Assembly: GCA_964438165.1 (NCBI GenBank)
Contig: CAYTJV010000045.1
Coordinates: 1-22,948 of the forward strand
Source of the DNA: an uncultured Planctomycetaceae bacterium
Lineage (GTDB): Bacteria; Planctomycetota; Planctomycetia; Pirellulales; Thermoguttaceae
DNA length: 22,948 nt
Direction: 5' to 3'
The notes under the pieces are model-generated. The model made no database searches, was not told the origin of the DNA, and worked only from the letters and a program-made list of their open reading frames with translations. The translations under genes were made by a program, and so were the position numbers. The number at the start of each line of letters is the position of its first letter. The first letter of the stretch is position 1. Below are positions 6,041-20,770 of this stretch, piece after piece.

Positions 6041-7942
6041 TCACTGGAAGAACCGGTGTCCGCAATTGTCGCAGAACTTCGATCCGCTGGGGATCTGACG
6101 GTGGCAGGTCGGGCAGACGACTTGCGGACCCTGTTGCACAGGGCCGGGGGCGCCGGCCTTCGCGGCCGCCACGTCGGCCAGGCGGTCCATGCTTTGCCCG
6201 GCCATGGCCTGCACATCGCGGGCGTGCTCGCGCTCCTTGGCCGCCGCGGCTCCGGCCACCCGCTCCATCGAGCCCATCGCCTTTTCCATGACCCGCTCCA
6301 GCCGGTCGGCTTCGGATTCCTTGCCGGCGAGGATTTTTTCGTACAGGGCCTTGACCTCGGCGCTTGCCCCGGCCTGGACCTGGGCCTTGGCACGCTCGGC
6401 AATCGCCGCCGCCACCTGCGGCGAGTCCTTGGCCACCAGGGCCAGGATCTGGTCCGGGCTAAGGTCCTTCATCACCTCGGTTTTCTTCAGATCCGCCGCC
6501 AGCCGAGTCTGCTCCGCCTCGGAAAGGGCATGAATCCGCTCCAGCTCCCGCTTCGCCTCACGGTCCTTGGCCTCTTGCTCGCGGGCGATCCGCTGGGACT
6601 CCTCTTCGTGATCCAGCGCGACCTTCTTCTCGCGCAACCGCATACCCAATTCTGCCTTGCGTTCGACGATACGCACGTCGGCCTCGGCCTCGGCGATTCG
6701 CTCGTCGCGGCGGCCCTCGGCAACGCGTCGCTCGTGTTGTACCTTCTCCCAGTCGGCCTCCTGCCGGGCACGGAGATCATCCCGCCCGTACCGGATGCGG
6801 TTCTCCAACTCCGCGTCGGAAAGGGCGTGACGCTGGCGGAGCACGGCCAAGTCGTGCTCCAGATCGAGCTTCTCCAGCATGTGCCTCCGCGCCACATCCG
6901 CGTCTTCCCGCTTCTCGGTGAAGGTGCGCCGCAGTTCCTCCATTTCGTCGGCGCGGACGAGGTCCTTGAGGCCCAGCTCGTGCTCGGTCTGACGCACGAA
7001 ATCTTCGAGCTCCTTCGCCGACGAGAACTGATTCATGCGGTCCGCGGTGAGCGTTTCGCGCAGCCGGCGGTTGAGCGCTGCCCGGCGATCGGCGTCGTCG
7101 GCCCCTGCCTCGGCGAGGCAGGTTTCGCCGCGGCGATCGCGAAGGGCTTCGTAGGATCGGCACGCCACGTGCAACGACCTGAGCGCCACAAGCTCCAGGC
7201 CGCTGCGCCGCAGGGCAGGCTCGATCCGCTGTCGCAGGTCGTTTTCCAGCGCGGCCTTCCACTGTGGATCGGCATTGAGATCGGCAAGCGATGCCTCTTG
7301 GACGCGGGCCCGAACCGTGTCGGCGCACGCGCTGCGCACCAGGTCGGCCACCGCGGCCTTGGGGAGGCTCTCCCGGCCGTGCACCAGGTTGGTGAAAAAG
7401 GAGAGCGGGTCGGCCACGCGCACCACGACCTCGGCCGTCAGGTCGGCAACGACCTCTTCCCGGGTGCGGAGGTCCCGGTACTCAAGCCCCAGCGCGGTGT
7501 CGCCCGCGTCGACGAGGATCGCGCTCGCCGGCGCGGCGAGGTTGAGTCGGGCCGGCAGCCGGGCCAGGTCATAGTTCCCGGCGGAGACCACCGCGGCCAG
7601 CGCGCCGCGTTGAAACACGAGGGCCTGCGTGCCCGGCTCGACCACCAGACGCCGCCGGAACAGCCCGCGAAGGTCGGCGGCTTCGATCCGGCGGGCGAAC
7701 TCGTCGCCGGAGCGACTCCAACGGTTCAGGGCGTCGACCGGCGCCGGCTCGTCGTCGCTGCGGCCCGCGGAAGCGCCGCAATGGCTACACAACTTGGCGT
7801 CGGCCTTCAAGGGCTTACCGCAGGCGGCACACGTGCCCTGGCTGGAGGGAATGGGTCGGCCGCAGTGCGGACAAAAGGCCGCGCCCCAGCGGACCTCCTT
7901 GCCGCAATCGAAATGGGGACACTGGCGGGAGAGAATGCCCAT
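6041..7942 (-). CDS. Flotillin/SPFH (band-7)-like protein with N-terminal and C-terminal zinc ribbons and a long Glu/Arg/Ala-rich coiled coil
   Basis: The start is taken at the internal Met (MGILSRQCPHFDCG…), because the upstream extension is Arg/Trp-rich junk. The N-terminus has three CxxC pairs. An SPFH-like core reads VVEPGTQALVFQRGALAAVV…AILVDAGDTALGLEYRDLRTREEVVADLTAEVVVRVADPLSFFTNLV. A flotillin-like EA-rich coiled coil follows, and the C-terminus has CPTCH…CDNCG. It is a paralogue of the protein at 17005-18933. Confidence 0.6.
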   Translation of the reverse strand: MGILSRQCPHFDCGKEVRWGAAFCPHCGRPIPSSQGTCAACGKPLKADAKLCSHCGASAGRSDDEPAPVDALNRWSRSGDEFARRIEAADLRGLFRRRLVVEPGTQALVFQRGALAAVVSAGNYDLARLPARLNLAAPASAILVDAGDTALGLEYRDLRTREEVVADLTAEVVVRVADPLSFFTNLVHGRESLPKAAVADLVRSACADTVRARVQEASLADLNADPQWKAALENDLRQRIEPALRRSGLELVALRSLHVACRSYEALRDRRGETCLAEAGADDADRRAALNRRLRETLTADRMNQFSSAKELEDFVRQTEHELGLKDLVRADEMEELRRTFTEKREDADVARRHMLEKLDLEHDLAVLRQRHALSDAELENRIRYGRDDLRARQEADWEKVQHERRVAEGRRDERIAEAEADVRIVERKAELGMRLREKKVALDHEEESQRIAREQEAKDREAKRELERIHALSEAEQTRLAADLKKTEVMKDLSPDQILALVAKDSPQVAAAIAERAKAQVQAGASAEVKALYEKILAGKESEADRLERVMEKAMGSMERVAGAAAAKEREHARDVQAMAGQSMDRLADVAAAKAGAPGPVQQGPQVVCPTCHRQIPSGSKFCDNCGHRFFQ

Positions 7943-7994
7943 AGTCTCGTGCCTTTCACTGAGAAACGCTGAAGGACGGCCTGGAAAGGCCGTC

Positions 7995-8837
7995 TTACAC
8001 GATTTCTTCCATCTTGTCGAGCACCACCCAGTTGTATGCCAAGGCCGTGACCGCAGCCGCAACCAGCAGCAGGGCCGCCCAACCACGTTCCAGTTGGAAG
8101 CCCATCATGGCGTATGCGGCCGCGGTCCCCACGAAGGCGAGTCCCAAGAGCAACCCCAAGTTCACCGCGTTCGACTGGCGAGCCAAGGCTCGATGAAGCC
8201 ACGGCGCCAGCGCCAAGGGGAGCAGCAGGACCAGCGCCAGCCACGCCACCAATCGTATCGGCCAGGCGTAACTGGTGACCCTCGCGGCCGCCTGCGATCG
8301 CCCGCGATCGTGTACGACCTCGGCAGTCAGGCTCACCGGTTGTGATGGCTCGCGGGTCTCAACCAAGATCGCCTCCAGGACGGCTTCATCCCGATCGGTT
8401 CGGGCGGCCAGGCTGCGCACGCGGCCGGCCACCAAGTACTCGCTGTCGAGCCGACTGCCGGCCGCCGTGACGGCCGCCTCGAGGGCCAGTTCGTCGTTTT
8501 CGATGCCCAGCTCGCGCTTCACGTTTTCCCAGAGGGATGCCGGACGGACCGCGTATCGACCCGCGCGATCGATCGCCCGGCGCACGGCTTCCGTCACCAC
8601 GCCCGTGGGATCGCTTTCGAACCGGGCCACGACCAACGAGGGCCTTCCCGACGGCGCCGCGGGCAATCGCTCGGCAAGCTGCCGGGCTGCGTCCTCGACC
8701 AGGGCTCGGCGGGCAGGATCGAGCGGCAACGGACGGGAGCGGACCAGCATCCACCCTTGCGCGATCACGACCAGCACCACACCCAGCCGGGCCAACCCCG
8801 TGCCGGCGCGAATCAGTCGGCCGAGCCATCTGAACAT
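7995..8837 (-). CDS. Hypothetical polytopic membrane protein (N-terminal signal-anchor helix, soluble middle domain, about three C-terminal TM helices)
   Basis: The start is taken at MFRWLGRL (GGGAG ribosome-binding site 8 nt upstream). The ORF-track N-terminal extension would overlap the upstream gene. Hydrophobic segments read LARLGVVLVVIAQGW and WPIRLVAWLALVLLLPLALAPWL…LGLLLGLAFVGTAAAYAMMGF…ALLLVAAAVTALAY. Confidence 0.55.
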   Translation of the reverse strand: MFRWLGRLIRAGTGLARLGVVLVVIAQGWMLVRSRPLPLDPARRALVEDAARQLAERLPAAPSGRPSLVVARFESDPTGVVTEAVRRAIDRAGRYAVRPASLWENVKRELGIENDELALEAAVTAAGSRLDSEYLVAGRVRSLAARTDRDEAVLEAILVETREPSQPVSLTAEVVHDRGRSQAAARVTSYAWPIRLVAWLALVLLLPLALAPWLHRALARQSNAVNLGLLLGLAFVGTAAAYAMMGFQLERGWAALLLVAAAVTALAYNWVVLDKMEEIV

Positions 8838-8850
8838 GCTGTATGCTCCC

Positions 8851-9441
8851 CTACGGCTCCCTGCGCATTTCTTCCTCGATCCGCCGCAGCCCGTCGGAGA
8901 TCTGTCCGTCGTCGCCGGAGGCCTCGTCGGCAGCGGCCTCGGTGACCATCTGGTGGGCCAGTTCGCCGAGCTTCCGCTCGTCGAGATCGCGGGCGTCGAA
9001 GAGACTGCCGGCACTGGTTTCCATGGCCACCGAGAGGACTTCTTCGAGGGCCTCCGACTTCTCCACGGCGCGGGCCATTTTGGCCTGCACGTCGGCCACT
9101 TGCTCCGGCGTGGCGCCGCGGAGGATCGAGTTGGTCATCGCCAAAATGCTCTTCAGAAAATCGCCGGTGGCGGCGACCTCGTCGCGGCGCACGCCGAGCG
9201 TCTCCAGTTGCAGCAAGTACCGCTCCCAGCGGCTGACGTGCTCGCGAGCGCGCAGGACCGCCGCGGCCAGTTGCTCGAATTGCTCGCGGTCGCCCAGGCG
9301 GAGGGCCTGCTTGCCCAGTTGCCAGTAGCGCTGCTGCACCTCGCGGGCACTGCGCATGAACCGCTGGATGCGCGTGATCCCCTGGCGGATTTGGATTTTC
9401 GCCTCCAGCTCCCGCTGCTGCCTCGATTTGAACAGTCCCAT
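8851..9441 (-). CDS. ESCRT-III/CHMP/PspA-superfamily-like coiled-coil protein
   Basis: 197 aa from the internal Met. The N-terminus MGLFKSRQQRELEAKIQ… resembles eukaryotic CHMP (MGLFGK…) and PspA (MGIFSRF…) N-termini. The protein is predicted all-helical and charged. The acidic C-terminus ends in an MIM-like stretch, SDGLRRIEEEMRR. The ORF-track upstream extension translates the intergenic hairpin and was rejected. Confidence 0.55.
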   Translation of the reverse strand: MGLFKSRQQRELEAKIQIRQGITRIQRFMRSAREVQQRYWQLGKQALRLGDREQFEQLAAAVLRAREHVSRWERYLLQLETLGVRRDEVAATGDFLKSILAMTNSILRGATPEQVADVQAKMARAVEKSEALEEVLSVAMETSAGSLFDARDLDERKLGELAHQMVTEAAADEASGDDGQISDGLRRIEEEMRREP

Positions 9442-9463
9442 GGTCCGGTCATCTCCGATCCTT

Positions 9464-9524
9464 AGTAGCAGGCACACTCCGTGTGCCGTCCGCCGGCTAC
9501 GGCACACGGAGTGTGCCTACTACT
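9464..9524. promoter_or_regulatory. Nested-palindrome hairpin. The arms AGTAGCAGGCACACTCCGTGTGCCGT / ACGGCACACGGAGTGTGCCTACTACT are separated by 9 nt, and each arm carries a 17-bp self-palindrome GGCACAC-NNN-GTGTGCC. It spans the stop codon of the AAA ATPase and the 5' leader of the ESCRT-III-like gene.
   Basis: Read directly from the sequence. The ORF track shows the mirrored peptide TAHGVCLLL on both strands. Confidence 0.5.
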
Positions 9525-10683
9525 TTGCGCACAACGACTCATACCGCTTCAAGGTCTCCGGCGGCGTATCGGGCCGCAGTTTGGCCAGCGCCGACTCGAA
9601 GTCGTCCCAGCGGAGCGGGCGCGTGGCAAGCTGGTACTTGCTCAGATCGGCGTCGCCGCGGGCGACCCGCTCGACGAGCTTCGGGTTGGCGTCGCCGATC
9701 ATCGTTTCCACGGCCACGGCGGCCAGGTGGGCGAGCTGCCGACCGCTCAGCCCCTCCGACCGCGCCACGAGGCTCTCCAAAGGGAAGCTCAGCGTGTGTC
9801 CCCTCCGCGTCAAATGAATTTCCAGGATTTGCCGTCGAGCAGCAGGATCGGGAAGGGGCACGTAAACGCGGCGTCCGAAACGGCTCAGCGCCGCCGGGTC
9901 CATGAGCCAGGGGGTGTTGGTCGCGCCCAGGGTGAACACGGGCGGGCCGTCTCCGCTGGCAGCGACCCCGCTCAGCTCGGCCAAGAGCGTGGAGAGGACC
10001 TGGCGCTCGGCAGCGCCGGAGGAAAGCTCTCGCGAAGCGAACAGGGCATCGAGCTCGTCGATGAAGACCAGCGAGGGGGCCCGCTGGCGCGCGACCGCGT
10101 AGAGCGTGGCAACCAGCCGGGCCGATTCGCCAAACCACTTGGAGAGCACGGCCGCCGCGCCGACGTTGAAGAACGTGGCGCCCAGCCCGCGGGAAGCGGC
10201 CGCCGCCAGGAGCGACTTGCCCGTCCCCGGCGGACCGAACAACAGGATGTTGCGAATCGGGTCGATCCGCACGCCGGGCGGTTTCTCGGCCACGGCCAGC
10301 CCAAAGGCCAACTGGATCTGCCGCTTCGTCTCCTCCAGGCCGCCGATGTCCTCCCATCCCACCGCGGCCCGCATGATGAGGGCCTCGACCTGGCCTCGGA
10401 GCTCCTGGTCGCCAGACGCGGGTTGTGGGATTGGGCCGGACGGCGGCGCAGGTCGTTGCTCCGAGAGGCGCTGAGCGAGGCTTTCCAGGTTGCGTACACG
10501 GGCCGTTCGCCGCGATCGTTCGGCGGGGCTGACCGCGTACTGGGCATACGCCCGTGCCAGCCCCGCCGCCTCGCGGTAGACGGAGGCGGCTCGTCCCGCC
10601 TCCCCGCCGGCGCGAAGCTCATCGGCCCGCCGGAGGGTCTTGCGAAGCGACTCGTCGATGCTGCGGCTCAAGTCAACGTTCAT
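9520..10683 (-). CDS. Vps4-like AAA+ ATPase (MIT-like N-terminal domain plus a meiotic-clade AAA domain)
   Basis: The start is taken at MNVDLSRS, with GAGAGGAG immediately upstream. The N-terminal ~75 aa form a three-helix MIT-like pattern (SIDESLRKTLRRADELRAGGEAGRAASVYREAAGLARAYAQYA…RSRRTARVRNLESLAQRL) that aligns by eye with the yeast and human Vps4 MIT domain. Walker A is GPPGTGKS and Walker B is LVFIDELD. The meiotic-clade signature ATNTPWLMDPAALSRFGRRVYVPLPD matches the Vps4 stretch ATNIPW.LD.A.RRRFE.RIYIPLPD. The C-terminal helix …DFESALAKLRPDTPPETLKRY is Vps4-like. Confidence 0.75.
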   Translation of the reverse strand: MNVDLSRSIDESLRKTLRRADELRAGGEAGRAASVYREAAGLARAYAQYAVSPAERSRRTARVRNLESLAQRLSEQRPAPPSGPIPQPASGDQELRGQVEALIMRAAVGWEDIGGLEETKRQIQLAFGLAVAEKPPGVRIDPIRNILLFGPPGTGKSLLAAAASRGLGATFFNVGAAAVLSKWFGESARLVATLYAVARQRAPSLVFIDELDALFASRELSSGAAERQVLSTLLAELSGVAASGDGPPVFTLGATNTPWLMDPAALSRFGRRVYVPLPDPAARRQILEIHLTRRGHTLSFPLESLVARSEGLSGRQLAHLAAVAVETMIGDANPKLVERVARGDADLSKYQLATRPLRWDDFESALAKLRPDTPPETLKRYESLCAK

Positions 10684-10694
10684 CGCACTCCTCT

Positions 10695-10773
10695 CGTAGC
10701 TTGGCTCTCCAGAGCCGAGCAAATACGGTCAACATCGCGGAAAAATCGCTCGGCTCTGGAGAGCCAAGCTACG
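10695..10773. promoter_or_regulatory. Nested-palindrome hairpin. The arms CGTAGCTTGGCTCTCCAGAGCCGAGC … GCTCGGCTCTGGAGAGCCAAGCTACG have a ~28-nt loop, and each arm contains the self-palindrome GGCTCT-CC-AGAGCC. It occupies the junction between the Snf7-like stop and the ATPase ribosome-binding site and start.
   Basis: Read directly from the sequence. It has the same two-level palindrome architecture as 9464-9524 and 755-817. Confidence 0.5.
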
Positions 10774-11380
10774 GAGAGAGGACCTTTTCGACGCGCTGGG
10801 CCGCCTCGGCAACGCCCTCCGGCCGGCCGGCTTCTTCGGCGGCGCGGGCGTCTTCCATGGCGGCGACGATGGCTGCCAGGTCGGCATCCGGCTCGGCCTG
10901 CTCCGCGGCCTGCACCGCACCGTCCAGGGAGCCCAGCAGGCTGGTGAACTTCTCCATCTCGAACTGGCCTGCCACGGAGGCCCGCTCGACGTAGGCCGTC
11001 AGCTCCTCGACCGACATTCGAGAGATCACCGAGCCGACTGTGAGCTGCTGCAAGAGCGACATATTCTCCTTGATCTGCAAGAGCCCGTCGACGATCCGCA
11101 GGTGCTTGTGGAAGAACGCGAGCTGCTGGCCTTTGGCGCGGGCGGCGCTATCGAGCTGCTTGATCTTCCGCGCCAGGGCCAGCCGCTGCCGCGAGCTCGG
11201 GTCGTCCTTGCCCTTCATGAATGACTCGTGTTTGCGGGCTTCCAGCTCGTCGGTCTCGCGGCTGACGCGCCGCTCCAACTGCTCCAGGCGGATCTTTTCG
11301 TGCTTCAGCTCGTCGATCGTGAGCCGGTCGATGCCCTTGGGGCTGCCCAGCAAATTCCGCAGACGGTCAAGCAGCAACAT
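10769..11380 (-). CDS. Snf7/ESCRT-III-like coiled-coil protein (first gene of the operon)
   Basis: 203 aa, with a GGAG ribosome-binding site 7 nt before the ATG. The protein is all-helical and charged, with a heptad-like …KIRLEQLERRVSRETDELEARKHESFMKGKDD…RQRLALARKIKQLDSAARAKGQQLAFFHKHLRIVDGLLQI… that resembles Snf7/CHMP4 core helices. The C-terminal tail is acidic. This is weaker than the call for the downstream MGLF protein. Confidence 0.45.
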   Translation of the reverse strand: MLLLDRLRNLLGSPKGIDRLTIDELKHEKIRLEQLERRVSRETDELEARKHESFMKGKDDPSSRQRLALARKIKQLDSAARAKGQQLAFFHKHLRIVDGLLQIKENMSLLQQLTVGSVISRMSVEELTAYVERASVAGQFEMEKFTSLLGSLDGAVQAAEQAEPDADLAAIVAAMEDARAAEEAGRPEGVAEAAQRVEKVLSP

Positions 11381-11400: not shown

Positions 11401-11433
11401 AAACTTCCGAAGTCTTCGAGACTTCGGAAGTTT
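11401..11433. repeat. Copy 2 of the 33-bp palindromic element (AAACTTCCGAAGTCTTCGAGACTTCGGAAGTTT), lying between the kinase stop (11436) and the Snf7-like start (11380)
   Basis: An exact core match to copy 3 and the reverse-complement orientation of copy 1. It is followed by TTTTG on the plus strand. Confidence 0.85.
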
Positions 11434-11435
11434 TG

Positions 11436-13721
11436 TTACCCCTTCTTATACAACACCGTGCCGACGTCTTTCATCGACTCGCAGACGCACAGGCCCTCGG
11501 CCGCGAGGATGCGGCAGACCTGGTCCGCTGCCTTGCGGCTGATCCCCAGTTGCTCCACGAGCGTCGCCAGGGCAATCGAAGCGTGCTCGGCGAAATGCCG
11601 CCCGATCCATTGCCGCGCCCGCTCCAGCACGGCCGCGCTGACGTCGGCAGAGAACGCCTCGCGCCATGCCGCCAGACGCTCATCCGTTTCCGCCCAGCGG
11701 AAACGCGCTCGATCGCGGTCGTAGAGCACGACGCTCACCAGCCGGTCGCGGAAGGGCCGCGGCCCCGCGCCGCTGGCCATCTGGAGGGCCTCGTCCGTCC
11801 ATCCGGTCGGGCTGGCGAGGATGACCAAACGCCACGTTTTTTCGTCGGCCGCCTGGCGCGCGATCCGATTGAGCAACGACTCCAGTTCCGTCGCGGCGAC
11901 CGGCTGATCGTCGTAACCTTCGGCGGCGAAGCGGCCGGCGTGCAGCACGCTTCGGGCCTCGACCACCACGCGGGCCGTGGTTTTCCACAGCCCGCGCTGC
12001 CGCACCTCGTACACCATTCGGTCCCCCGACGGGCCGTGAATTCCCGCACGGCGCGACGCGTCCGACACGGCCCCGGCCGCGCTCGAGTCGTCATCCGCGG
12101 CCCTTCGGGTGCGCCGCTGGGAAAAGTCGCCCACGGAAATCACGGCCTGCCGCACCGGGTCCACCACCTCGGAGACCTCCGCGAGCGCGTTCTCCACGAC
12201 ACGGAAAAACGTCTCCTCGGCCAATTCCGCATCCGCAGCGGAAACGGCGGGCAGGGTGGCGGCCTGCGCGGGGGCTGGCTTCTGCTCGACCACTTCGGCA
12301 GGATCGCGGGGCAAGTCGCGGGCAACCGGCGGCGGGCTGGCCGCTGGCGCCGCATGCGCGCGGCAGCGCCGCACCTTCCCCGCTCGCCAACAGGCAGAGC
12401 ATATCGATGCCCCGCAGACCTCGCAGGTCCCCGCACTGCTGAGCTTTGAGAGCATGGGCTTGCCGCACGCCGCGCAGCGGTCGAACGACGCATTCCCACT
12501 CGGCCGTCCCGCCTCAACGGCGCGAACTCGCTGTTCGGGCACTCCGGGAGTCTGAAGCGGCAGGGTGGCATCGTGTCCGGCCAGGTACGCGTCGATGGCC
12601 TGAATGAAGTCCTCGGCCGTCTGGTACCGCTGCTGACGCTCGCGCGCCATGGCGCGGCGGATCATGTCGCCCAGCCGGCGCGGCACCGCGGGGTTGAGCT
12701 GGCAGGCGTCGGGCGGATCCTCCTCGCGGATCCGCCGGATCACGACGTACGGATCCGATCCCGCAAACGGCACCGCCCCCACGAGCATCTCGAACAGCAT
12801 CGTCCCCACGGAGAACAAGTCGCTCCGGCCGTCGAGGTCGCGCGTCCCGGCAGCCTGCTCAGGCGACATGTAGCTCGGGCTCCCCAGGACGGTTCCCTCC
12901 ATGGTCTGTTGGCAGGCATCGGCCATGCCGCGGGCCAGCCCGAAGTCGGCCAGCTTCGCCGTCCCCGTGGCGTCTTCCAGGATCACGTTGCCCGGCTTGA
13001 CGTCGCGATGGATCACGCCTTGCGCGTGCGCGTGGCCCAGGCCGGCGAGGACCTGGCGACACAGGGCCAGCGCCGCCGGCGGGTCGAGGCGGCCCTCTTC
13101 GGCGATCCGCGAGGCCAGCGAGCGGCCCTCGACGTACTCCATGTCGATATAGGGCATATCGTTCTCGATCCCCACCGAGTGTACCGCCACCACGCTCGGG
13201 TGCTTGAGTTTGGCCGCGGCGCGGGCCTCGCGGAGAAAGCGTTCGCGGGCTTCGGGGTCGTGGAGCCGCGAGGGGGCCATGAGCTTGAGGGCCACGGTCC
13301 GCTGGAGCGTTCGGTCGACGGCCTGGAGCACGACGCCCATCGCCCCCATGCCCACCAGCGCGATCACGTCGTAGGAGCCTAAGCTGGCGATGTACTTCGG
13401 GTCTTGGGGCAAGTCCAACAACAGGCCGCCGGCCACGACAACCCGGTCGCCGCGGACCTCCACGTGCGGAAATCGTGGGAAGTGCGCGGCGCGGATGGCC
13501 TCGAAATCGGCGTCGTGGGCCGGAGCGTCCTGGCCGATCAAGGCGGCCAGCTCGTCGGTCGGCCCCATGGCCTCGTCGAAGCGCTTTCGGCAAAGGGCGC
13601 AGCCGTCGAGGTGTTTCTGCACCTGGGCCTCTTCGTAAGCCCTGGCCAGTCCGGCCGCCACGCGGGTCAGGACGTCGGGTGAGGGGCACTGCGGGGAATG
13701 AGCCGACTGGGGTTCAGACAT
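11436..13721 (-). CDS. Fusion of an anti-sigma factor (ZAS motif) with a Hanks-type Ser/Thr protein kinase, plus a C-terminal zinc-ribbon and unknown domain
   Basis: The start is taken at MSEPQS…, 2 nt after the sigma-factor stop. The N-terminus carries HLDGCALC (an H-x3-C-x2-C zinc anti-sigma motif). Kinase motifs are ALKLM, HRDVKPGNVIL, DFGLAR and SPSYMSPEQ. A later CAACG…CEVCGASICSAC forms a zinc ribbon. The C-terminal ~250 aa are of unknown family. Confidence 0.8.
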   Translation of the reverse strand: MSEPQSAHSPQCPSPDVLTRVAAGLARAYEEAQVQKHLDGCALCRKRFDEAMGPTDELAALIGQDAPAHDADFEAIRAAHFPRFPHVEVRGDRVVVAGGLLLDLPQDPKYIASLGSYDVIALVGMGAMGVVLQAVDRTLQRTVALKLMAPSRLHDPEARERFLREARAAAKLKHPSVVAVHSVGIENDMPYIDMEYVEGRSLASRIAEEGRLDPPAALALCRQVLAGLGHAHAQGVIHRDVKPGNVILEDATGTAKLADFGLARGMADACQQTMEGTVLGSPSYMSPEQAAGTRDLDGRSDLFSVGTMLFEMLVGAVPFAGSDPYVVIRRIREEDPPDACQLNPAVPRRLGDMIRRAMARERQQRYQTAEDFIQAIDAYLAGHDATLPLQTPGVPEQRVRAVEAGRPSGNASFDRCAACGKPMLSKLSSAGTCEVCGASICSACWRAGKVRRCRAHAAPAASPPPVARDLPRDPAEVVEQKPAPAQAATLPAVSAADAELAEETFFRVVENALAEVSEVVDPVRQAVISVGDFSQRRTRRAADDDSSAAGAVSDASRRAGIHGPSGDRMVYEVRQRGLWKTTARVVVEARSVLHAGRFAAEGYDDQPVAATELESLLNRIARQAADEKTWRLVILASPTGWTDEALQMASGAGPRPFRDRLVSVVLYDRDRARFRWAETDERLAAWREAFSADVSAAVLERARQWIGRHFAEHASIALATLVEQLGISRKAADQVCRILAAEGLCVCESMKDVGTVLYKKG

Positions 13722-14301
13722 CGATCTGCTCCACCGCTTCACGGAGCTTGGCCAGCACGCGCGACTTGCCCACGTACACGTTGCCGACGGTCGTCTGCAA
13801 TTGTTCCGCAACCGTTTCCGGCGGGATCCCGTTGAGCACCGAGCGGCGGAAGGCCTCCCACGTGAGCGGCTGCACGGCCGCGCGCACCCGCTTCATGGCG
13901 ATCTCCAACACCCGGCGCCGATGCTCCTCCTCCACCCACGCCTCCACGGCCTGGCCGGAATCGGCAATCCCGGCGACGATCCGAACGTTGTCCGACCCGC
14001 CCGGCGCCGACGGCTTGCGGGCCTGTCCGTGGAAGTGGCGATACGCGCGGTGGCGGGCGACCGTGCTGAGCCAAGCGCGGAACGACTTGCTCGGATCGTA
14101 CTCGAACGGCTTGCGCGCGATGCGGTTCATCACGATCTGCATCACATCCTGCTGCAAGTCGAGGGCGTCCTGGTACGCCACGCCCATCCGCAACAGGACC
14201 CGCAACACCAGCGGCCCATACAACTCCACGAACTCCTGCCAACTCGCCTGGTCGCCGAGATTCCGCACGCGCAACAAGAGACTGGGCCGAGTTCTTTCCA
14301 C
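13714..14301 (-). CDS. ECF (group IV sigma-70) RNA polymerase sigma factor
   Basis: Region 2 and region 4 motifs read …RPSLLLRVRNLGDQASWQEFVELYGPLVLRVLLRMG…DLQQDVMQIVMNRI… and …VLEIAMKRVRAAVQPLTWEAFRRSVLNGIPPETVAEQLQTTVGNVYVGKSRVLAKLRE. The start is proposed at GTG 14301 (VERTRPSLL, with GGAAGG 8 nt upstream). An in-frame ATG at 14463 would add an Arg/Cys/Gly-rich leader and is less likely. The gene is translationally coupled to the kinase gene. Confidence 0.7.
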   Translation of the reverse strand: MERTRPSLLLRVRNLGDQASWQEFVELYGPLVLRVLLRMGVAYQDALDLQQDVMQIVMNRIARKPFEYDPSKSFRAWLSTVARHRAYRHFHGQARKPSAPGGSDNVRIVAGIADSGQAVEAWVEEEHRRRVLEIAMKRVRAAVQPLTWEAFRRSVLNGIPPETVAEQLQTTVGNVYVGKSRVLAKLREAVEQIDV

Positions 14302-14684
14302 CCCGGGCGCCTTCCAGCCGTTCGGGCGAGTTGCTCTCAGAGGCTGCCCGGAAACGGGGCCGGGCCCCCTACATCGTGTGCGAGGTCGAGCCCCGACACA
14401 CAACCGGGAGCCAGTCCCCGTTTCCGAACCGTCTCTCACTTCCTTCCCGCAAAGCGCGATCATTCTAACCGACCCAGACCTGTATTTGCAGGGGGTGCGT
14501 TCACCTGCCGCTTCCGCGTCGGCACGTTCCGAAGAGCCATGCAACGATGACTAGCCCGGGAAGTGAAGAATCTTACACGAAAAACCTGGGAATGGCGTGG
14601 GAGCGGACTGCCCCCAGCGGCCGAGGAGCGGCAAGACAGGGGGGAGGCGAGACGCCGCCAAGCCAGAAGCAAGGAATCGCTCGC

Positions 14685-14963
14685 TCAGCGCTTTGATTTG
14701 CCGCGAGAAGATCGATACTTTTCGCTTAGCGCCCGGCGATTGAGGAAATGTGCGAACCAGGGGAGCGGGCCGAAGGACTTGGCTCTTTCCTTGTGGGCCG
14801 CGCCGAACAAGGGAAATGCGACCGCACCCAAAGCCCCGGCCGCGGCGCCAATCAACAGGCCCGACACCGCGCCCATGCCCGCGCTCAGGTACAACAGGAT
14901 CAGCCATCCTCCCAGAAGGATCGATCCGATCGTGATGACCACCTTGTTGTCGCTTTCGTCCAT
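14685..14963 (-). CDS. Small glycine-zipper membrane protein
   Basis: 92 aa, with GAGGAG 6 nt before the ATG, overlapping the end of the upstream kinase gene. Two TM segments are rich in GxxxG/A (ITIGSILLGGWLILLYLSAGMGAVSGLLIGAAAGALGAVAFPLFGAA), followed by a basic tail. It resembles the YeaQ/YmgE/transglycosylase-associated small-protein style, but the family is uncertain. Confidence 0.5.
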   Translation of the reverse strand: MDESDNKVVITIGSILLGGWLILLYLSAGMGAVSGLLIGAAAGALGAVAFPLFGAAHKERAKSFGPLPWFAHFLNRRALSEKYRSSRGKSKR

Positions 14964-14987
14964 CGCTTGGTCTCCTCGCGGTCCTGT

Positions 14988-16886
14988 TTACGATTGCAGG
15001 ATCGCGCCCACCGCAATCCCACCGATCGCGCCGGCGACCAGCCCGCCGATCGGGCCTGCCAGCGCGCCGACAGCCAGACCGAGCACCGCGCCGGCAACCG
15101 CGCCGCCCACAACGCCGGCGAACATCGAGACGCGTCGGGCGGTCTGTTCATCCCGCTTCAGCAGGTCGCCGTCGCGCGCCGCAAGATACTCGCCCCGGAG
15201 TGCCCGATCGTCCGGACGAGCCGTAACCAGTTCCCGCAGCGATGGACCGACTGTCGCTCGCGCCTCCGCCGCGTGCGGGCCGTTGGGATAGGAACTCAAG
15301 TAGCTCCGGTAACCCTCTGGGCTCGGGGCCTGGTGGACCGCGTTCCAGGCCAATTCTTGCTGGTGGGCCTCGTGTTTGTCAAGCTGCTGGAGGAGTTTTT
15401 CCACGGAAGGATCGTGGGGAGCCAACTGGCGGAGCCGCTCTGCCTTGGGCCGCAGTCCCTCGTAATTCTTGCTGGCGATCTGGTCCTTGATCTCCTGGCG
15501 CAACTGGGCGATCGCCTGCATCGACGTCTGCGCTTGACCGAGCACATTCTTAGCGCGGTCGAGCAAATCAGCGAGTTCGGGGTTGTGGAAGGCGTAGGGA
15601 ATCTCCTCCAGCAAGTTGACGGCCTCGGCGAACTTTCCCGCCTTCATCCATTCGTTCGCCTGCCGTATGGCCTCGTCGCGTTTCTTCTGCGCGGCGGCGT
15701 ACTCCTGTTGTACGACCGGGAGCTCCATTTCGGCCCATTTGGAAAGCCCGCGCTGGTTAGGGTCCACCGACAAGGTCATGGCGCGCAGGGTGTTGATCGC
15801 CTCCTGATACCGCGACTCGGAACGCAGAGTGGCCACCCGATCGGCAACGGCCTGGGCCTCATCGTCTGCGGCCTTCTTGCTCTGGTCGGGGGCCTCGACC
15901 GCGGGCGCTTGCTTCAACCGCGAATCCAACCCCGCAAGCGCCTGCTCGAATTCCGCGGCGGTCTGATACCGCTTCTCCCGGTCCTTGTGCAGGGCCTTGG
16001 CCAACACGGTCCGCAAGACCTCGGGGACCTCGCTCTCCCGGAAAAAACGCGGATTCTGCCCCGACAGCGCAAACCACAGCGTCCCCCCCATCCCGTAAAT
16101 GTCCGCCCGTTGGTCCACCTTCGACGCATCCACCTCCTGCTCCGGCGCCCCGTACCCAAGCGTCAACAACTGCGCCCCGGCCAGGGTGGCCCCCTCCTGC
16201 TGCGTGTTCACCTGCCGCGCCAGGCCGAAATCCGCCAGCTTCGGCTCCCAGTCCTCGTTGAAAAGGATGTTCGCCGGCTTGATGTCCCGGTGGATCACCC
16301 CACGCTTGTGCGCGTACTTCACCGCGCTGCAGAGCTTGATTCCCAGCCCCACGGTCTTGGCTAGGTCCAGCGCCCCCTTCGCCTTCACCAGCTCGTCCAG
16401 GTCCAGCGGCGGGTTGGGCGCCTCCGCAGGCCAATCGGCGCGCCCACCGGCCTCCGGACCCGCCACGTATTCCATGGCGATGTAGGGCCCCTCCGAGTCC
16501 TCGTCCATCGCGTAGACCTGCACGATGTGGAAGTGGGCTAACGATCCCACCGACTGGGCCTCAGTGTGGAACCGCTGCAAGAGCCGGCTATCCTCGGCGA
16601 ACTGTTCCGACAAGCGCTTCAAGGCCACCCAGCGATTCAGGCGGACATCCTGGGCCAGGTTCACCGTGCCCATCCCGCCCTTGCCGATCAGGTGGACCAC
16701 GCGATACTTGTCGCCGGTGCCGCCGCGCCGCTCGCCCTGGTCACCGGCGGCCGTGCTGCCGACGCCGCCATCGGCGAACGTCGCCCCGTACACGTTTTCC
16801 GGACCCGACGGCGGTTTGGCCGGCCGGGGCTGCGATCCGCTCTGGGGCGATTGTTGGCCGGCGTCGCTGATGGTGCGATCGTCCAT
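14988..16886 (-). CDS. Hanks-type Ser/Thr protein kinase with a C-terminal helical (TPR-like/coiled-coil) region and a glycine-zipper TM tail
   Basis: GGAGG ribosome-binding site. Kinase motifs are GKGGMGTV, VALKRL, HRDIKPANILF, DFGLAR and GYGAPEQ. The C-terminus is …MFAGVVGGAVAGAVLGLAVGALAGPIGGLVAGAIGGIAVGAILQS. Confidence 0.8.
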   Translation of the reverse strand: MDDRTISDAGQQSPQSGSQPRPAKPPSGPENVYGATFADGGVGSTAAGDQGERRGGTGDKYRVVHLIGKGGMGTVNLAQDVRLNRWVALKRLSEQFAEDSRLLQRFHTEAQSVGSLAHFHIVQVYAMDEDSEGPYIAMEYVAGPEAGGRADWPAEAPNPPLDLDELVKAKGALDLAKTVGLGIKLCSAVKYAHKRGVIHRDIKPANILFNEDWEPKLADFGLARQVNTQQEGATLAGAQLLTLGYGAPEQEVDASKVDQRADIYGMGGTLWFALSGQNPRFFRESEVPEVLRTVLAKALHKDREKRYQTAAEFEQALAGLDSRLKQAPAVEAPDQSKKAADDEAQAVADRVATLRSESRYQEAINTLRAMTLSVDPNQRGLSKWAEMELPVVQQEYAAAQKKRDEAIRQANEWMKAGKFAEAVNLLEEIPYAFHNPELADLLDRAKNVLGQAQTSMQAIAQLRQEIKDQIASKNYEGLRPKAERLRQLAPHDPSVEKLLQQLDKHEAHQQELAWNAVHQAPSPEGYRSYLSSYPNGPHAAEARATVGPSLRELVTARPDDRALRGEYLAARDGDLLKRDEQTARRVSMFAGVVGGAVAGAVLGLAVGALAGPIGGLVAGAIGGIAVGAILQS

Positions 16887-16924
16887 GGGGATTCCTCCAC
16901 TGGTTCTGTACTACGAACCTCAAA

Positions 16925-17002
16925 TTCAGGGTTCGGGGTTCGGGGGTCGGGATTCCCGTTCAAGCGTCTCCTCCGAGTCCTGAACCCTGAACCCCGAACC
17001 CT
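16925..17002. promoter_or_regulatory. Imperfect inverted repeat built from tandem G-tract heptamers (AGGGTTCGGGGTTCGGGGGTCGGGATTC … GAGTCCTGAACCCTGAACCCCGAACCCT). It lies between the SPFH-paralogue stop and the kinase start and is a candidate terminator, attenuator or G-quadruplex element.
   Basis: Read directly from the sequence. There are four G-runs of 3-5 on one arm and the complementary C-runs on the other, with an ~18-nt loop. Confidence 0.4.
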
Positions 17003-17004
17003 TT

Positions 17005-18933
17005 CTAGGGTTGTCCTTCCTGCGGATCCGGGGGCTGTCCCTGCGGCGCCACGTTGATGACCTGCTGCGGGCCGGTCACCTTGGCAAGCTCCTTGGCCGA
17101 CTGGTACTGTCCCCACTGCTTCACCGCTTCCTGGAGCAACGCGGTGTACTGCTCGTTGTTGCTGGCGTACGATTTGGACAGCTCGTCGCGGAATTTCTCC
17201 TGCATTTGGAACTGCTCCCGCTGGTTTCCGGCCTGCACGCTGGCGGCGTAGGCGGCGGCCAGTTGCGGATTCTCGGCCAGGGCGATGGTGAGCACGGAAT
17301 CGGGAGGGAGGTTGGCGTATTCCCTCAACATGCGGATGCGGCGATTGAGCTGCGACTCCTGCTGTTCGTCTTGCAGCCTCAACGCCTGGCCGTGCATCTC
17401 CATGGCCAACCTCATCTTTTCCTTCTGCAACTCGAACCGGGCGTGTTCCGCCGCCGTGTTCATCTCGATCTCGTGCCGGCGGGCGGCGCCGTCCATTTCC
17501 AGTCGGCGCTGCAATTGCTCCGCGCGCAACAGGTCCTTGTCGCGATCCGTTTCGCGGGCCTCCTTGATCACATGCCGGTCCAGCGCGGCCTGATCCGAAG
17601 CCATCGACATCTCGGTCTCGGTTTCCACGTGAGAGACGTCCTGGGCCTCCGCGCTGTCCATGCGCCGCTGTTCGCGGCCGATCTCCAATTCTTCTTTGCG
17701 GTCGACGAGTTGCTCGCGCTGCAAGGCATTGTCGCCGCGGCGCTTGAGAAGCTCTTCGTAACGCGGACAGATGAAGCGAAACGCCGACACCCGCTCGATC
17801 TTTAGGCCGTACGTGTTGAACGTCGTCGACATGATCCTCTGAAGGTCGCCGGCCACGCGCTCGCGAACCTCGACGGTGTTGTACAAGCGCTCGGCTTTCT
17901 CGTTGCGCACGGCCTCGATCACCGCAGCGAGGAACTCCATGCGGATTTGCTCGTAGAATTCGGCCACGGTGACGGGGACGGGCTTGGCCAGGCTGGGGCC
18001 TTTGGCCCCGGCGCCAAAGAGAACCCGGCCGACCAACTCCATGGGAAATCCAAACAGCTTCCCCACCAGCCCGCCGTGTTTGGGTTGCTGGTCTTCCGCC
18101 ATCCCCAGGGACTTCTTCTGATCCGGGCTGAGCTCCCGCAATTTCCGGTCGATGAACATCTGCAGCAGCCTCACGGGGTCGGCGCAGCGGAGAACGACCT
18201 GGGCCGTGGCCGCCCCGAGGAGGTTGTCGGCCGTGCGGATGCTCGAGCCCCGCAGCGCCGCCTCGACTTCAAAGGCCCATTTGGCCTCGTGCTCTTCGGA
18301 AAGCGTTTCAATGTCGGGGAGGAAGAACGTGGTTGCCAACGGCCCCTGTGCGACCGTGCAGAGGAACACCGGACGCATTTCCTTACCTGCCTCCAGGGCC
18401 AGCCCGAAGCTCTTGCCCAGCCCGCGCCGCGATACGTCGTACTCCCCCGCCTGCAGTACCGCCGTGCGGTGAATCTGGGACACCATGAACGTACACGTCC
18501 CGGGTTGGACCGCCAACTTCTTGATGTTCGGCAAGCTCCCATCGGGCAACTGGTCGGTGACCGTAATCAGGACCAAAGGGAGCTTCGCCATCTGCTCTTT
18601 GGAGGCCCTGGCCCGATTAAAGATGGCCCTCGCGTCAACCTCCTCGATCGGGTTATTCTGCGCGTGGAGCTCGGCGTGACAGTACATGCAGTAGCGGGCC
18701 TCGAACGTCATCTTCTGGCACTTGGGGCATTGGATCCGCTTCGATGCCGCACGGCTCGGCTTGGGATCGGTCACATCGGTGAGTGCTCCACCGCCGGACA
18801 CCGCGGAGAGCGAACCGGCGGTGATGGAATCGCGCTCTAGCCGGGCCGAAGGCAGCTCGGCCAGACAGTGCGTGCAGTACCGGGCCTCGGCCGTCATCTT
18901 GTTGCACGAAGGGCACTTGATTTGCTTGGGCAT
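17005..18933 (-). CDS. Flotillin/SPFH-like protein with an N-terminal double zinc ribbon and a long coiled coil (paralogue of 6041-7942)
   Basis: AAGGA ribosome-binding site. Two CxxC…CxxC units (MPKQIKCPSCNK…CTHC; CPKCQK…CMYC). The SPFH-like core reads …VQPGTCTFMVSQIHRTAVLQAGEYDV…VVLRCADPVRLLQMFIDRKLRELS… and has the same architecture as 6041-7942. A long E/R/Q-rich coiled coil follows. Confidence 0.6.
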   Translation of the reverse strand: MPKQIKCPSCNKMTAEARYCTHCLAELPSARLERDSITAGSLSAVSGGGALTDVTDPKPSRAASKRIQCPKCQKMTFEARYCMYCHAELHAQNNPIEEVDARAIFNRARASKEQMAKLPLVLITVTDQLPDGSLPNIKKLAVQPGTCTFMVSQIHRTAVLQAGEYDVSRRGLGKSFGLALEAGKEMRPVFLCTVAQGPLATTFFLPDIETLSEEHEAKWAFEVEAALRGSSIRTADNLLGAATAQVVLRCADPVRLLQMFIDRKLRELSPDQKKSLGMAEDQQPKHGGLVGKLFGFPMELVGRVLFGAGAKGPSLAKPVPVTVAEFYEQIRMEFLAAVIEAVRNEKAERLYNTVEVRERVAGDLQRIMSTTFNTYGLKIERVSAFRFICPRYEELLKRRGDNALQREQLVDRKEELEIGREQRRMDSAEAQDVSHVETETEMSMASDQAALDRHVIKEARETDRDKDLLRAEQLQRRLEMDGAARRHEIEMNTAAEHARFELQKEKMRLAMEMHGQALRLQDEQQESQLNRRIRMLREYANLPPDSVLTIALAENPQLAAAYAASVQAGNQREQFQMQEKFRDELSKSYASNNEQYTALLQEAVKQWGQYQSAKELAKVTGPQQVINVAPQGQPPDPQEGQP

Positions 18934-18943
18934 CGCAAAATCC

Positions 18944-20770
18944 TTAACTCGCTGCGGGAGTCGAAGTCATGTTGGGAGCCAGATATTGTGCGTCATCCAC
19001 GGGAGTGGGCAGGATCTGCCAAACGATCCGGTGGCGACCGCCGAGCACGCACGCTTGCTGCGGAGCCAAGATCTGCCAGGCCCCGTCCGATGAACACGCC
19101 AACAACTCGGGGCCGCGCTGGGGGTCCCGTTGCCAGGCTAGCCACAACACCGGCGCTTGATTTCCGGGCGGCACAAACGCCACGGGGAACCGGCCGTCGG
19201 TCAAGAGGTAACTGAGTTGTTCCGCGAGCGTATCGTTTCGGTACAGCCATAAGGTGTGTACGTGGCCGTCACACGCCTGGAGCCGCACCTGAAAGGGCAC
19301 CACCTGGGCCGGCTCCAGCCGGTCGTCATCGGCCAGCAGGCACGGCGCCGCTCTGGGCAGTCGCTCCCCGTTCACCCAGGTGCCGTTCGTGCTCCGGTCG
19401 GCGGCCCAGGCGCGGTCATCGCGCAGCTCCAGCGAGGCGTGACACCGCGACAAGCGGCCGTGTTGATGGGCGTCATAGGGCGAGGGGCGAAGCCACCAGG
19501 CGACGGCCGGATCTCCGCCCCGGCCGAGACTTGCCGACGCTCCGCACACTGCCGAGATTGCATGCCGCAGGCCCGTGTGCTGATCGTATACCCATACCGC
19601 CGCTTGCGCGCGGGCCCCGGCGGGCCAGCCGTGCTCCGACGCAGAGGCCGGCACGTTCCAACCGGCGGGCTCAGGACACGCGCCGGCCAGGCGACGGATG
19701 AAGGCATGGTCGGGTTGCAGCTCCAGGGGCTGCCAGCCGCCCGCACTGCCCAATCCACCGAGGCCCAGGTCAAACCCCTGGGGGCCCGACATCGGCGGAG
19801 CGCCCCCCACGATAAACACGTCGCCGCCCGCGTGAATCTCCTTCTTCTCCTCGTCCTCGATATTGATCACCCAAGAGGCGGTCCAGCGTCCCAGCGGCAA
19901 ATTGGCAGGCGTCTTGACCGTCAGGACGAACCGCAGGGAATCGGCCCCCGCCCATTTCGGCACGAACCGCAGGGCCTGGAACTCCTGCATCTGGCCGGAG
20001 ATCAGCCTGGTTTGAAACGCCCCAGGCGCAGACAACAACTCGGAGCCGACGTTCAACTCCACCACCGATTCCGACGAAAGATGCTCGCCGCGCACGCGAA
20101 CACGAAGCAGGCTTTGCTGGTTCTTCCGGTATTTGCCGGATGCTTCGACTTCCACGCACACCGGTCCGCCGCCAACGCCGAGGGTGGGGATCGTCAGCGG
20201 GCCGGCAAACCCGCCGGGGATCGACGGCATGGCGGGCATCGGCGGCATGGTCGGCATCGTCCCTGGGCCAGCGCCCGGTTGCACGACCGGGCGCCCGGCG
20301 GATTGCACAGGCAGACGATTCGCCGCTGCCGACGCCTCGCTCGTGGACTGGGGGGCGTCTCCGGCTTGGAATAGGGTAAGCATCTCCTCGTACTTGCCGG
20401 TCGACTGAGGCGATTGAGGCAACTGGGGCGTCGTCTTCCGCGGTGGGGCCGCCGCCGTGGCCGAGTCCCCGGAAAACAGGGACAGCATCTGATCGAAAAC
20501 CTTGCTCTGGCCGGCTCCCTGGGATAGCCCTTCGGATGGTCCCGCGGCGGCAGGTTGCGGATCGGCGGCCGCCGGCTTAGAGAGCGCATCCCGCGACGGC
20601 CCTTCGACCGCGTCTCCGCAAGAGGGGCAGAAGCTGACGTCAGGGGGGAAGGTGAGCGTGCATTCCGCTTTCCGACAGAACGCGACCCCTTCGCCACAGG
20701 CCGGACATTGCCCCGCACCGAAGGGGACGGGACTGCCGCAAGCATAACATTCGTACTCTTGTCCGCTCAC
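18944..20770 (-). CDS. Zinc-ribbon / FHA-domain protein
   Basis: The N-terminus is YECYACGSPV…CPACGEG…CPSCGD. A long Pro/Ala/Gly-rich linker with MPxMP repeats follows. The C-terminal FHA pattern reads LGRGGDPAVAWWLRP…SRCHASLELRDDRAWAADRSTNGTWVNGERLP. The start overlaps the stop of the upstream gene by 4 nt (ATGA). Confidence 0.7.
   Translation of the reverse strand: MSGQEYECYACGSPVPFGAGQCPACGEGVAFCRKAECTLTFPPDVSFCPSCGDAVEGPSRDALSKPAAADPQPAAAGPSEGLSQGAGQSKVFDQMLSLFSGDSATAAAPPRKTTPQLPQSPQSTGKYEEMLTLFQAGDAPQSTSEASAAANRLPVQSAGRPVVQPGAGPGTMPTMPPMPAMPSIPGGFAGPLTIPTLGVGGGPVCVEVEASGKYRKNQQSLLRVRVRGEHLSSESVVELNVGSELLSAPGAFQTRLISGQMQEFQALRFVPKWAGADSLRFVLTVKTPANLPLGRWTASWVINIEDEEKKEIHAGGDVFIVGGAPPMSGPQGFDLGLGGLGSAGGWQPLELQPDHAFIRRLAGACPEPAGWNVPASASEHGWPAGARAQAAVWVYDQHTGLRHAISAVCGASASLGRGGDPAVAWWLRPSPYDAHQHGRLSRCHASLELRDDRAWAADRSTNGTWVNGERLPRAAPCLLADDDRLEPAQVVPFQVRLQACDGHVHTLWLYRNDTLAEQLSYLLTDGRFPVAFVPPGNQAPVLWLAWQRDPQRGPELLACSSDGAWQILAPQQACVLGGRHRIVWQILPTPVDDAQYLAPNMTSTPAAS

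Follow-up and report, generated by a model that had tools for sequence, protein, structure and literature searches.

A putative sigma/anti-sigma switch with a built-in Ser/Thr kinase heads an ESCRT-like operon in a planctomycete

Introduction

In the known pairs of a sigma factor and a zinc-binding (ZAS), or class I, anti-sigma factor, such as RsrA-SigR, RslA-SigL, ChrR-SigE and RsiW-SigW, the anti-sigma gene directly follows and overlaps the sigma gene, and its product begins with a short helical domain that carries an H-x3-C-x2-C motif and an upstream cysteine. We analysed a stretch of 22,948 nucleotides (hereafter the window; about 66% GC) from an uncultured Planctomycetaceae bacterium (assembly GCA_964438165.1, contig CAYTJV010000045.1), in which the gene for an extracytoplasmic function (ECF) sigma factor and that for a 761-aa Ser/Thr kinase protein share these features. 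The output side is different: it is a membrane anchor or a cupin in the described pairs, whereas here a Hanks-type kinase and a module of zinc, alpha/beta and winged-helix parts follow, all in a soluble protein. In DdvA of Myxococcus xanthus (PDB 8rlz, 8rot) an N-terminal ZAS-type domain likewise sits on a large enzyme-bearing protein, although the enzymatic domain is of another kind (CHAT).

ECF sigma genes beside Hanks kinase genes have also been described, namely in the groups ECF43 (EcfP/PknT, EcfK/PknS), ECF59-62 and ECF217. Reviews place the planctomycetal kinase-linked groups ECF59-62 and ECF217 as having no anti-sigma factor and as regulated by phosphorylation (PMC7826278, PMC8999054). 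In ECF43 the acidic motif of region 2.2 (DAED) is lost and replaced by Ser/Thr, and binding to core RNA polymerase requires phosphorylation (PMC8999054). The present pair resembles all these groups in its gene arrangement. It shares with them an affiliation to bacteria of the Planctomycetes-Verrucomicrobia-Chlamydiae (PVC) group, and its closest specific NCBIfam model, TIGR02989, is that of a Rhodopirellula/Verrucomicrobium sigma family, with a score (42.5 bits) below the cutoff of 124.6. It differs from them in that the kinase, here and in five paralogous pairs, carries an anti-sigma motif, and from ECF43 in that the sigma factor retains an acidic D-A-x-D.

[quoted passage not shown] There, as we propose here, a transcription regulator is encoded with, and controlled by, a membrane-remodelling protein of the ESCRT-III superfamily; the two systems are built from unrelated parts, PspF being an AAA+ enhancer-binding protein and the regulator here a sigma/anti-sigma-kinase pair, and the interaction in our locus is one that we infer. 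Among archaea, the ESCRT loci of the 'Main clade' and of Halo_FHA encode phosphatases, FHA proteins and SPFH plus zinc-ribbon proteins, as well as kinases whose C-terminus is a PCI-like winged helix (Makarova et al. 2024, PMC11188069). Counterparts of all these accessory genes are present in the window and its relatives, but the kinases of the archaeal loci are anchored in the membrane, contain Ig-like repeats and lack both an anti-sigma domain and a partner sigma factor. According to two recent surveys (PMC7619361, a 2025 review; PMC11188069), bacteria have no Vps4-containing ESCRT systems.

We consider it somewhat probable that the sigma-kinase pair of the window forms a cytoplasmic sigma/anti-sigma switch, in which a single protein serves as anti-sigma factor and as Ser/Thr kinase and bears a sensor module for a bacterial ESCRT-III/Vps4-like machine. 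The pair very probably regulates the ESCRT-like operon of which it is part, because it is conserved together with these genes and shares a module with another group of ESCRT-linked proteins; a recognised ECF promoter is not what this rests on.

Results and Discussion

In order to assign the N-terminal part of the kinase protein, a profile of residues 1-116 was compared with all PDB sequences. Seven were returned, and the best six were all anti-sigma factors, including RsiW (E = 0.0016), DdvA as second best (E = 0.006) together with its CHAT-fused full-length form, RslA (E = 0.26) and two ChrR entries (E = 0.28). DdvA is linked to CRISPR-Cas control. Pfam zf-HC2 was the sole family matched by the N-termini of all 10 orthologues (best E = 5.5e-5). 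Residues are called invariant from an alignment of these 10 full-length kinase orthologues (37-78% identity), in which all four candidate zinc ligands, C12, H37, C41 and C44, are unchanged. An AlphaFold2 (AF2) model was made of a chimera in which the sigma factor is followed by kinase residues 1-118, with unpaired alignment rows (mean predicted local distance difference test, pLDDT, 81). It has three short helices at kinase residues 15-22, 28-38 and 42-51 (pLDDT 91-94) and a long fourth one at 56-78 (pLDDT about 60), and the zinc ligands fall at the start of helix I, the end of helix II and the start of helix III. As modelled, this is the class I anti-sigma layout. Homology of the kinase N-terminus to ZAS/class I anti-sigma domains is therefore supported by profile matches, a common family and an invariant motif, which bears out the initial annotation of HLDGCALC as a ZAS motif, and the N-terminus probably binds the sigma factor.

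The junction of the two genes reads GATCGATGTCTGA on the minus strand, where the kinase ATG (13721-13719) precedes the sigma TGA (13716-13714). The sigma stop and the kinase start had been described as 2 nt apart, which is right for the two codons but not for the genes, which overlap by 8 nt and leave no gap. A Shine-Dalgarno GGAG lies within the last sigma codons, 7 nt ahead of the kinase ATG. All six loci in which the junction was read directly have an overlap of 4, 8 or 17 nt, and in the paralogous pairs L008-L012 the gene coordinates give an overlap of 4 or 8 nt or a 5-nt gap. Such an overlap, kept across loci, supports the translational coupling of the two genes that had been proposed.

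No transmembrane segment was predicted in the 761-aa protein, and its sole hydrophobic peak is inside the kinase core. A short beta region (aa 87-116) stands between the anti-sigma part and the kinase. The Gly loop (G124, G126, G129), the VAIK lysine (K146), H238-R239-D240, N245, D259-F260-G261 and P287-E288 of the APE motif are invariant, so that the Hanks domain is complete, as annotated, and by its motifs the kinase is catalytically intact. A zinc ribbon had been noted after it. A conserved zinc-ligand module is indeed present, but it has eight ligands, all of them invariant (C416, C419, C433, C436, C441, C444, C453 and H456), and its Pfam matches were at most weak and FYVE/RING/B-box-like. 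A variable disordered linker separates this module from the conserved C-terminal region.

The sigma protein was matched by Pfam Sigma70_r2 (E = 1e-12) and by NCBIfam TIGR02937 (sigma70-ECF) with 65 bits, above the cutoff of 42.9, over residues 21-189; its orthologues additionally match Sigma70_r4_2. Since it consists of sigma2 and sigma4 only, within about 200 residues, it is an ECF (group 4) sigma-70 factor, which confirms the initial annotation. Its region 2.2 reads D45-A-L-D48, and D-A-x-D is invariant in 18 orthologues (48-91% identity). The sigma factor is therefore not of the phosphorylation-dependent ECF43 type. It should bind core RNA polymerase unaided, and this fits the need for an inhibitor.

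The same motif bears on the best of the alternatives, direct activation as in the ECF43 pair EcfP/PknT, whereby the kinase would phosphorylate the sigma factor and the N-terminal Cys/His motif would be a docking or structural zinc finger and not an inhibitory one. Four Ser/Thr positions are conserved in the sigma factor among the 18 orthologues, namely T4, S7, S20 and position 103. The last (S103 in the window) is Ser or Thr in 18 of 18, with the two alternating, and sits in the flexible sigma2-sigma4 linker within a conserved P-G-G-[S/T]. Such alternation is the pattern expected of a phospho-acceptor, and we offer a phosphorylation site here as a hypothesis only. This linker residue, the intact catalytic residues of the kinase and the view of ECF59-62 and ECF217 in the reviews cited above all speak for direct activation. 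However, the sigma factor retains precisely the motif whose absence makes ECF43 dependent on phosphorylation (PMC8999054), and the homology of the N-terminus to inhibitory anti-sigma domains extends across three helices, beyond the CxxC. We thus regard direct activation without inhibition as unlikely, though the two modes are non-exclusive.

Gene contexts were gathered from the kinase and sigma orthologues, and the downstream genes were confirmed with profiles. The order sigma, kinase, ESCRT-III-like (about 210 aa), AAA ATPase, Snf7 (about 197 aa) was found in the window and in loci L001, L002/L003, L005, L006, L007 and L010, and in part in L004. Kinase identity to the window protein is 78% in L001, 51% in L006, 44% in L002/L003, 42% in L007 and 37% in L004; L005 is Planctomycetes bacterium SM23_32, the sole genome locus found by a scan of genome contigs, and L010 was reached through its sigma factor at 49% identity. 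The spacer between the kinase and ESCRT-III-like genes is 33 nt in L002, L004 and L006, 52 nt in L007 and 55 nt in the window, about 11 nt (or the genes overlap) in L005, and 263 and 274 nt in L010 and L001. Because the gene order is kept and the spacers are mostly short, the ESCRT-like operon is taken to start with the sigma gene, followed by the kinase gene. The initial annotation had the pair immediately upstream of the operon; it does adjoin the ESCRT-like genes, but it is not a separate unit and heads the operon itself. The pair is co-conserved with the ESCRT-like genes in 8 of 8 independent loci, a linkage which the annotation had raised and which holds at kinase identities down to 37%.

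Of the structural genes, the first encodes a 203-aa protein with a faint match to Pfam Snf7 (E = 0.35 in one orthologue), and a profile of its family gave no match in the PDB. The family has about 50 planctomycete homologue clusters, with Pirellulales, Tepidisphaeraceae and Planctomycetes SM23_32 as named sources. The faint similarity suggests a divergent relative. The 196-aa Snf7-family protein scored 20.7 bits (E = 3.6e-4) against Pfam Snf7 in the window and 35.2 bits in the L005 orthologue, the gathering score being 27.3. The AAA protein matched Pfam AAA (E = 1.3e-31) and, below the cutoff, Vps4_C (E = 0.0037); NCBIfam CdvC gave 149 bits over residues 37-397 against a cutoff of 650, and Cdc48 and PAN score similarly. 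Many loci of the operon also carry a second AAA gene and a gene for a 280-aa membrane protein. Such an operon, in which two proteins of the ESCRT-III family go with one or two Vps4/CdvC-like AAA ATPases and the 280-aa membrane protein, is present in Planctomycetota at positions 7995-11380 (minus strand) of the window and in L002, L005, L007 and L010.

The conserved C-terminal region of the kinase protein (aa 487-761, about 275 aa) had no match among the Pfam, NCBIfam and PADLOC models, in agreement with the earlier description of a domain of unknown family, there put at about 250 aa. In an AF2 model of residues 410-761 (mean pLDDT 78) the zinc module is followed by an alpha/beta domain, and a winged helix forms the end. 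For the alpha/beta domain, Foldseek gave no match at E <= 0.001, and a PDB profile search of the C-terminal region points to the winged helices of S25e and of the eIF3e PCI domain. When a profile of residues 479-761 was run against 1.84 billion cluster representatives, 403 homologue clusters were obtained at E <= 0.001. Kinases form the best tier. In the second tier (E from 1e-37 to 1e-17) the proteins measure about 410 aa and combine an excisionase-type helix-turn-helix (HTH_17, 56-62 bits), the eight-ligand zinc motif and the module, and one further homologue, P0293, carries a CHAT domain instead of the HTH, the type of domain that is fused to the anti-sigma part in DdvA. The module family of about 400 clusters, for which Pfam, NCBIfam and PADLOC hold no model, thus includes fusions to an excisionase-type HTH, to CHAT and to coiled coils (L013 6001-7236, L025 7031-8506, P0293).

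In L013/L014 the HTH-module gene is followed by one for a PKD protein, then by one for an ESCRT-III-like protein, which is 30% identical to its counterpart in the window (E = 1e-27), and by an AAA ATPase gene (41% identity), and in L025 the HTH-module, ESCRT-III-like, AAA and Snf7 genes are directly consecutive. In L023, AAA and Snf7 genes lie 3.8 kb away from the HTH-module gene. HTH-module fusions adjoin ESCRT-III-like, AAA and Snf7 genes in three of about five informative loci. The module accompanies ESCRT-like genes in two unrelated fusions, with a DNA-binding regulator and with the anti-sigma-kinase, and is therefore likely to be the system-specific part. This co-occurrence is the strongest argument that the kinase protein would regulate the operon with input from the ESCRT-like system.

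Taken together, we envisage the switch as follows. The overlapping start and stop codons would provide matched amounts of sigma factor and kinase protein, and the N-terminal zinc anti-sigma domain would keep the ECF sigma factor inactive. The C-terminal zinc/alpha-beta/winged-helix module may sense the state of the ESCRT-III-like/Vps4-like system encoded downstream, and its signal would turn the kinase on. Phosphorylation would then free or activate the sigma factor, the candidate targets being the kinase itself, the anti-sigma domain and the Ser/Thr in the sigma linker. The freed sigma factor would transcribe its own operon, including the ESCRT-III-like, Vps4-like and Snf7 genes, which would give a feedback akin to that in which PspA holds PspF.

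An RsrA-like redox switch would assign the sensing to the zinc site, with thiol oxidation freeing the sigma factor, and the kinase and module would act elsewhere, for example on the ESCRT-III-like, Vps4-like or FHA proteins. The arrangement C12...H37-x3-C41-x2-C44 matches the RsrA-type ligand spacing. Many ZAS domains, however, bind zinc structurally and do not sense redox conditions. Targets outside the pair would be in keeping with the FHA-domain proteins, further kinases and PP2C phosphatase in the neighbourhoods of the loci, and kinases and phosphatases also occur in archaeal ESCRT loci (PMC11188069). Yet the operon has no thiol-stress genes, and the conserved partner of the kinase protein is the ESCRT-like set and not a redox function. 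We consider such a switch improbable, and slightly more so than direct activation.

To see how far the pairing extends, five further sigma-linked kinases were looked at. P0110 (from a Verrucomicrobiae metagenome-assembled genome) and P0082 came from the kinase search and were picked because their records list zf-HC2, when their neighbours were not yet known; the other three were reached through sigma homologues of 39-49% identity. All five kinases directly follow a sigma gene and carry the N-terminal H-x3-C-x2-C, while in four of them the C-terminus is of another kind (WD40, DUF4097 or none) and the neighbours are unrelated. The ZAS motif was thereby present in 7 of 7 sigma-linked kinases examined, and the pairing of a sigma factor with an anti-sigma-kinase is generic in PVC bacteria. 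The initial annotation had held that a pair found with unrelated downstream genes would speak against regulation of the operon; the generic module is found in this way, but the orthologous group that bears the C-terminal module is not. We found no description of an anti-sigma-kinase fusion in the literature searched, and one may exist elsewhere. Alternatively, the pair would control unrelated genes elsewhere and be a mere passenger of the ESCRT-like cluster. This reading could draw on the generic module and on the lack of a proven ECF-type promoter before the structural genes, but it is very improbable, since order and close spacing are kept in eight loci, down to 37% kinase identity, from Pirellulales-like and Phycisphaerae-like sources, and since another fusion shows independently that the C-terminal module goes with ESCRT-III-like and AAA genes.

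The regions upstream of the sigma and ESCRT-III-like genes were searched for promoters. Enumeration of bipartite 4-mers in these regions gave nothing shared between loci, a sigma-70 consensus scan gave nothing relevant, and 8-mer enrichment in the sigma upstream regions was not above that in shuffles. Of 7 loci, 5 have a candidate -10 element, the CGTGTAAGAT box (GTAAGAW), upstream of the sigma gene; in a post hoc test that took composition into account, none of 5000 shuffles had it in more than 2 of 7. GTAAGA[AT] occurs once in the window, both strands counted, and in L010 a second exact CGTGTAAGAT lies 66 nt ahead of the ESCRT-III-like gene. The window copy is in an unusually long non-coding stretch of 686 nt (14302-14987), which separates the sigma gene from the kinase gene upstream of it. 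An Rfam search of the window, this stretch included, gave no match.

Several observations weigh against the switch that we propose. Taken one by one, the sequences show a weak similarity to anti-sigma domains, the window protein reaching 16 bits against zf-HC2, which has a gathering score of 22. The AF2 chimera gives per-residue confidence only, so that the packing of the domain on sigma4 (pLDDT 95-98) cannot be read from it. In L018, also a locus with an HTH-module gene, ESCRT-like genes are absent within 5.5 kb. As for the promoter, AAC-N15-19-CGT showed no conserved site upstream of the sigma and ESCRT-III-like genes in 6-7 loci, and the ECF-type promoter looked for by the initial annotation was thus not found. 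The GTAAGAW box was found post hoc, is AT-rich and has no definable -35; in two loci, L004 and L001, a stop codon overlaps with it, and it resembles a -10 of the housekeeping type no less than one of the ECF type. The proposal that the pair regulates the operon stands on co-conservation and the shared module, and not on a recognised ECF promoter.

A 33-bp palindrome lies between the kinase and ESCRT-III-like genes. It is real, as had been stated, and perfect, but it is a dispersed repeat, AAACTTCCGAAGTCT-NNN-AGACTTCGGAAGTTT with CGA or TCG as the central triplet, of which the window has copies at 589-621, 11401-11433 and 21738-21770. In RNA it would form a 15-bp hairpin (-27.8 kcal/mol for a 76-nt stretch, z = -4.4), which has no U-tract and was not flagged by a terminator scan. 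The palindrome is absent from the orthologous kinase-to-ESCRT-III spacers; in the same spacer the closest relative, L001, holds another palindrome, of 21 bp (GGACGGATTnnCAATCCGTCC), which is repeated four times in tandem (3428-3576). Both are lineage-specific insertions like repetitive extragenic palindromes. With three copies in the window, no counterpart in orthologous spacers and no U-tract, a role as operator or terminator was rejected, and the palindrome is not evidence for or against regulation. The third copy is held in frame in the linker of a 618-aa open reading frame (20767-22623, minus strand) with a caspase domain (aa 8-263) and an FGE-sulfatase domain (aa 358-610), and an ATG follows it by 9 nt; either the repeat was inserted in the linker, or two genes are read as one.

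The coordinates of the principal features are collected in Table 1. The operon is followed on the same strand by genes for a double-zinc-ribbon and SPFH/Band 7 protein (6041-7945) and a zinc-ribbon and DUF4384 protein (4691-6028); SPFH plus zinc-ribbon proteins are likewise encoded near ESCRT genes in archaea and at PspA loci in bacteria. The minus-strand genes upstream of the sigma gene (14988-20770) include one for a second Ser/Thr kinase, which ends in a hydrophobic tail (14988-16886), one for a 642-aa double-zinc-ribbon protein and one for a double-zinc-ribbon and FHA protein (18944-20770). FHA and kinase genes flank the operon in L004 and L010 too. In L006 a gene for a SpoIIE/PP2C-type phosphatase, a possible counterpart of the kinase, is directly upstream of the sigma gene (3702-4571). 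The second kinase, the FHA and SPFH proteins and this phosphatase are the counterparts of the archaeal accessory genes referred to above. A STAS-domain protein with an anti-sigma-antagonist-like fold is encoded at 2570-2938 (plus strand), about 8.5 kb from the pair, and there is no evidence of a link.

Table 1. Positions of the sigma-kinase pair, its domains and associated elements in the window
Feature	Positions	Strand	Basis
ECF sigma factor gene (GTG start, 195 aa)	13714-14301	-	Pfam Sigma70_r2, TIGR02937, orthologue alignments
Sigma/kinase gene overlap, 8 nt, ATGTCTGA	13714-13721	-	sequence; kinase start codon to sigma stop codon
Soluble multidomain protein, 761 aa	11436-13721	-	anti-sigma domain, Hanks kinase, zinc module, alpha/beta domain, winged helix
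ZAS-type anti-sigma domain, aa 1-80	13482-13721	-	PDB profile matches, zf-HC2, AF2 secondary structure
H37-L-D-G-C41-A-L-C44 motif	13590-13613	-	invariant in 10 orthologues; present in five sigma-linked kinase paralogues
Hanks-type Ser/Thr kinase domain, aa 117-368	12618-13373	-	Pfam Pkinase, E = 4.8e-45; catalytic motifs complete
Zinc module, aa 416-456, C2-C2-C2-CH	12354-12476	-	eight invariant columns; same motif in HTH-fused family
Winged-helix domain, aa ~696-761, S25e/PCI/GntR-like	11439-11636	-	AF2 model; PDB profile search
ESCRT-III-like protein, 203 aa, first structural gene after kinase	10769-11380	-	position conserved in 8 loci
Vps4/CdvC-like classic AAA ATPase	9520-10683	-	Pfam AAA; weak Vps4_C; NCBIfam CdvC below cutoff
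Snf7-family protein, 196 aa	8851-9441	-	Pfam Snf7
33-bp perfect palindrome, dispersed repeat	11401-11433		15-bp arms, 100% complementary
CGTGTAAGAT box (GTAAGAW), candidate promoter -10 element	14570-14579	-	269 nt upstream of sigma start

Conclusions

The locus described here and about 50 related planctomycete loci would contradict the stated absence of Vps4-containing ESCRT systems from bacteria. The sigma-kinase pair would be a built-in regulator of such operons, and regulator and module may be used to find further operons of this kind and to ask when they are switched on. The pair also offers a test of the independent evolution of PspA/PspF-style feedback. A wider proposal, which we put forward tentatively and hold with less confidence than the switch itself, is that the ECF-paired kinases of PVC bacteria may be the missing anti-sigma factors, a fused class recorded as 'no anti-sigma factor' in the ECF classification, and that the new module may sense ESCRT-III/Vps4 and feed back on transcription, through an HTH domain in other bacteria. 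If the N-terminal ZAS motif is general in sigma-linked kinases, the mechanism of several ECF groups would need to be revisited.

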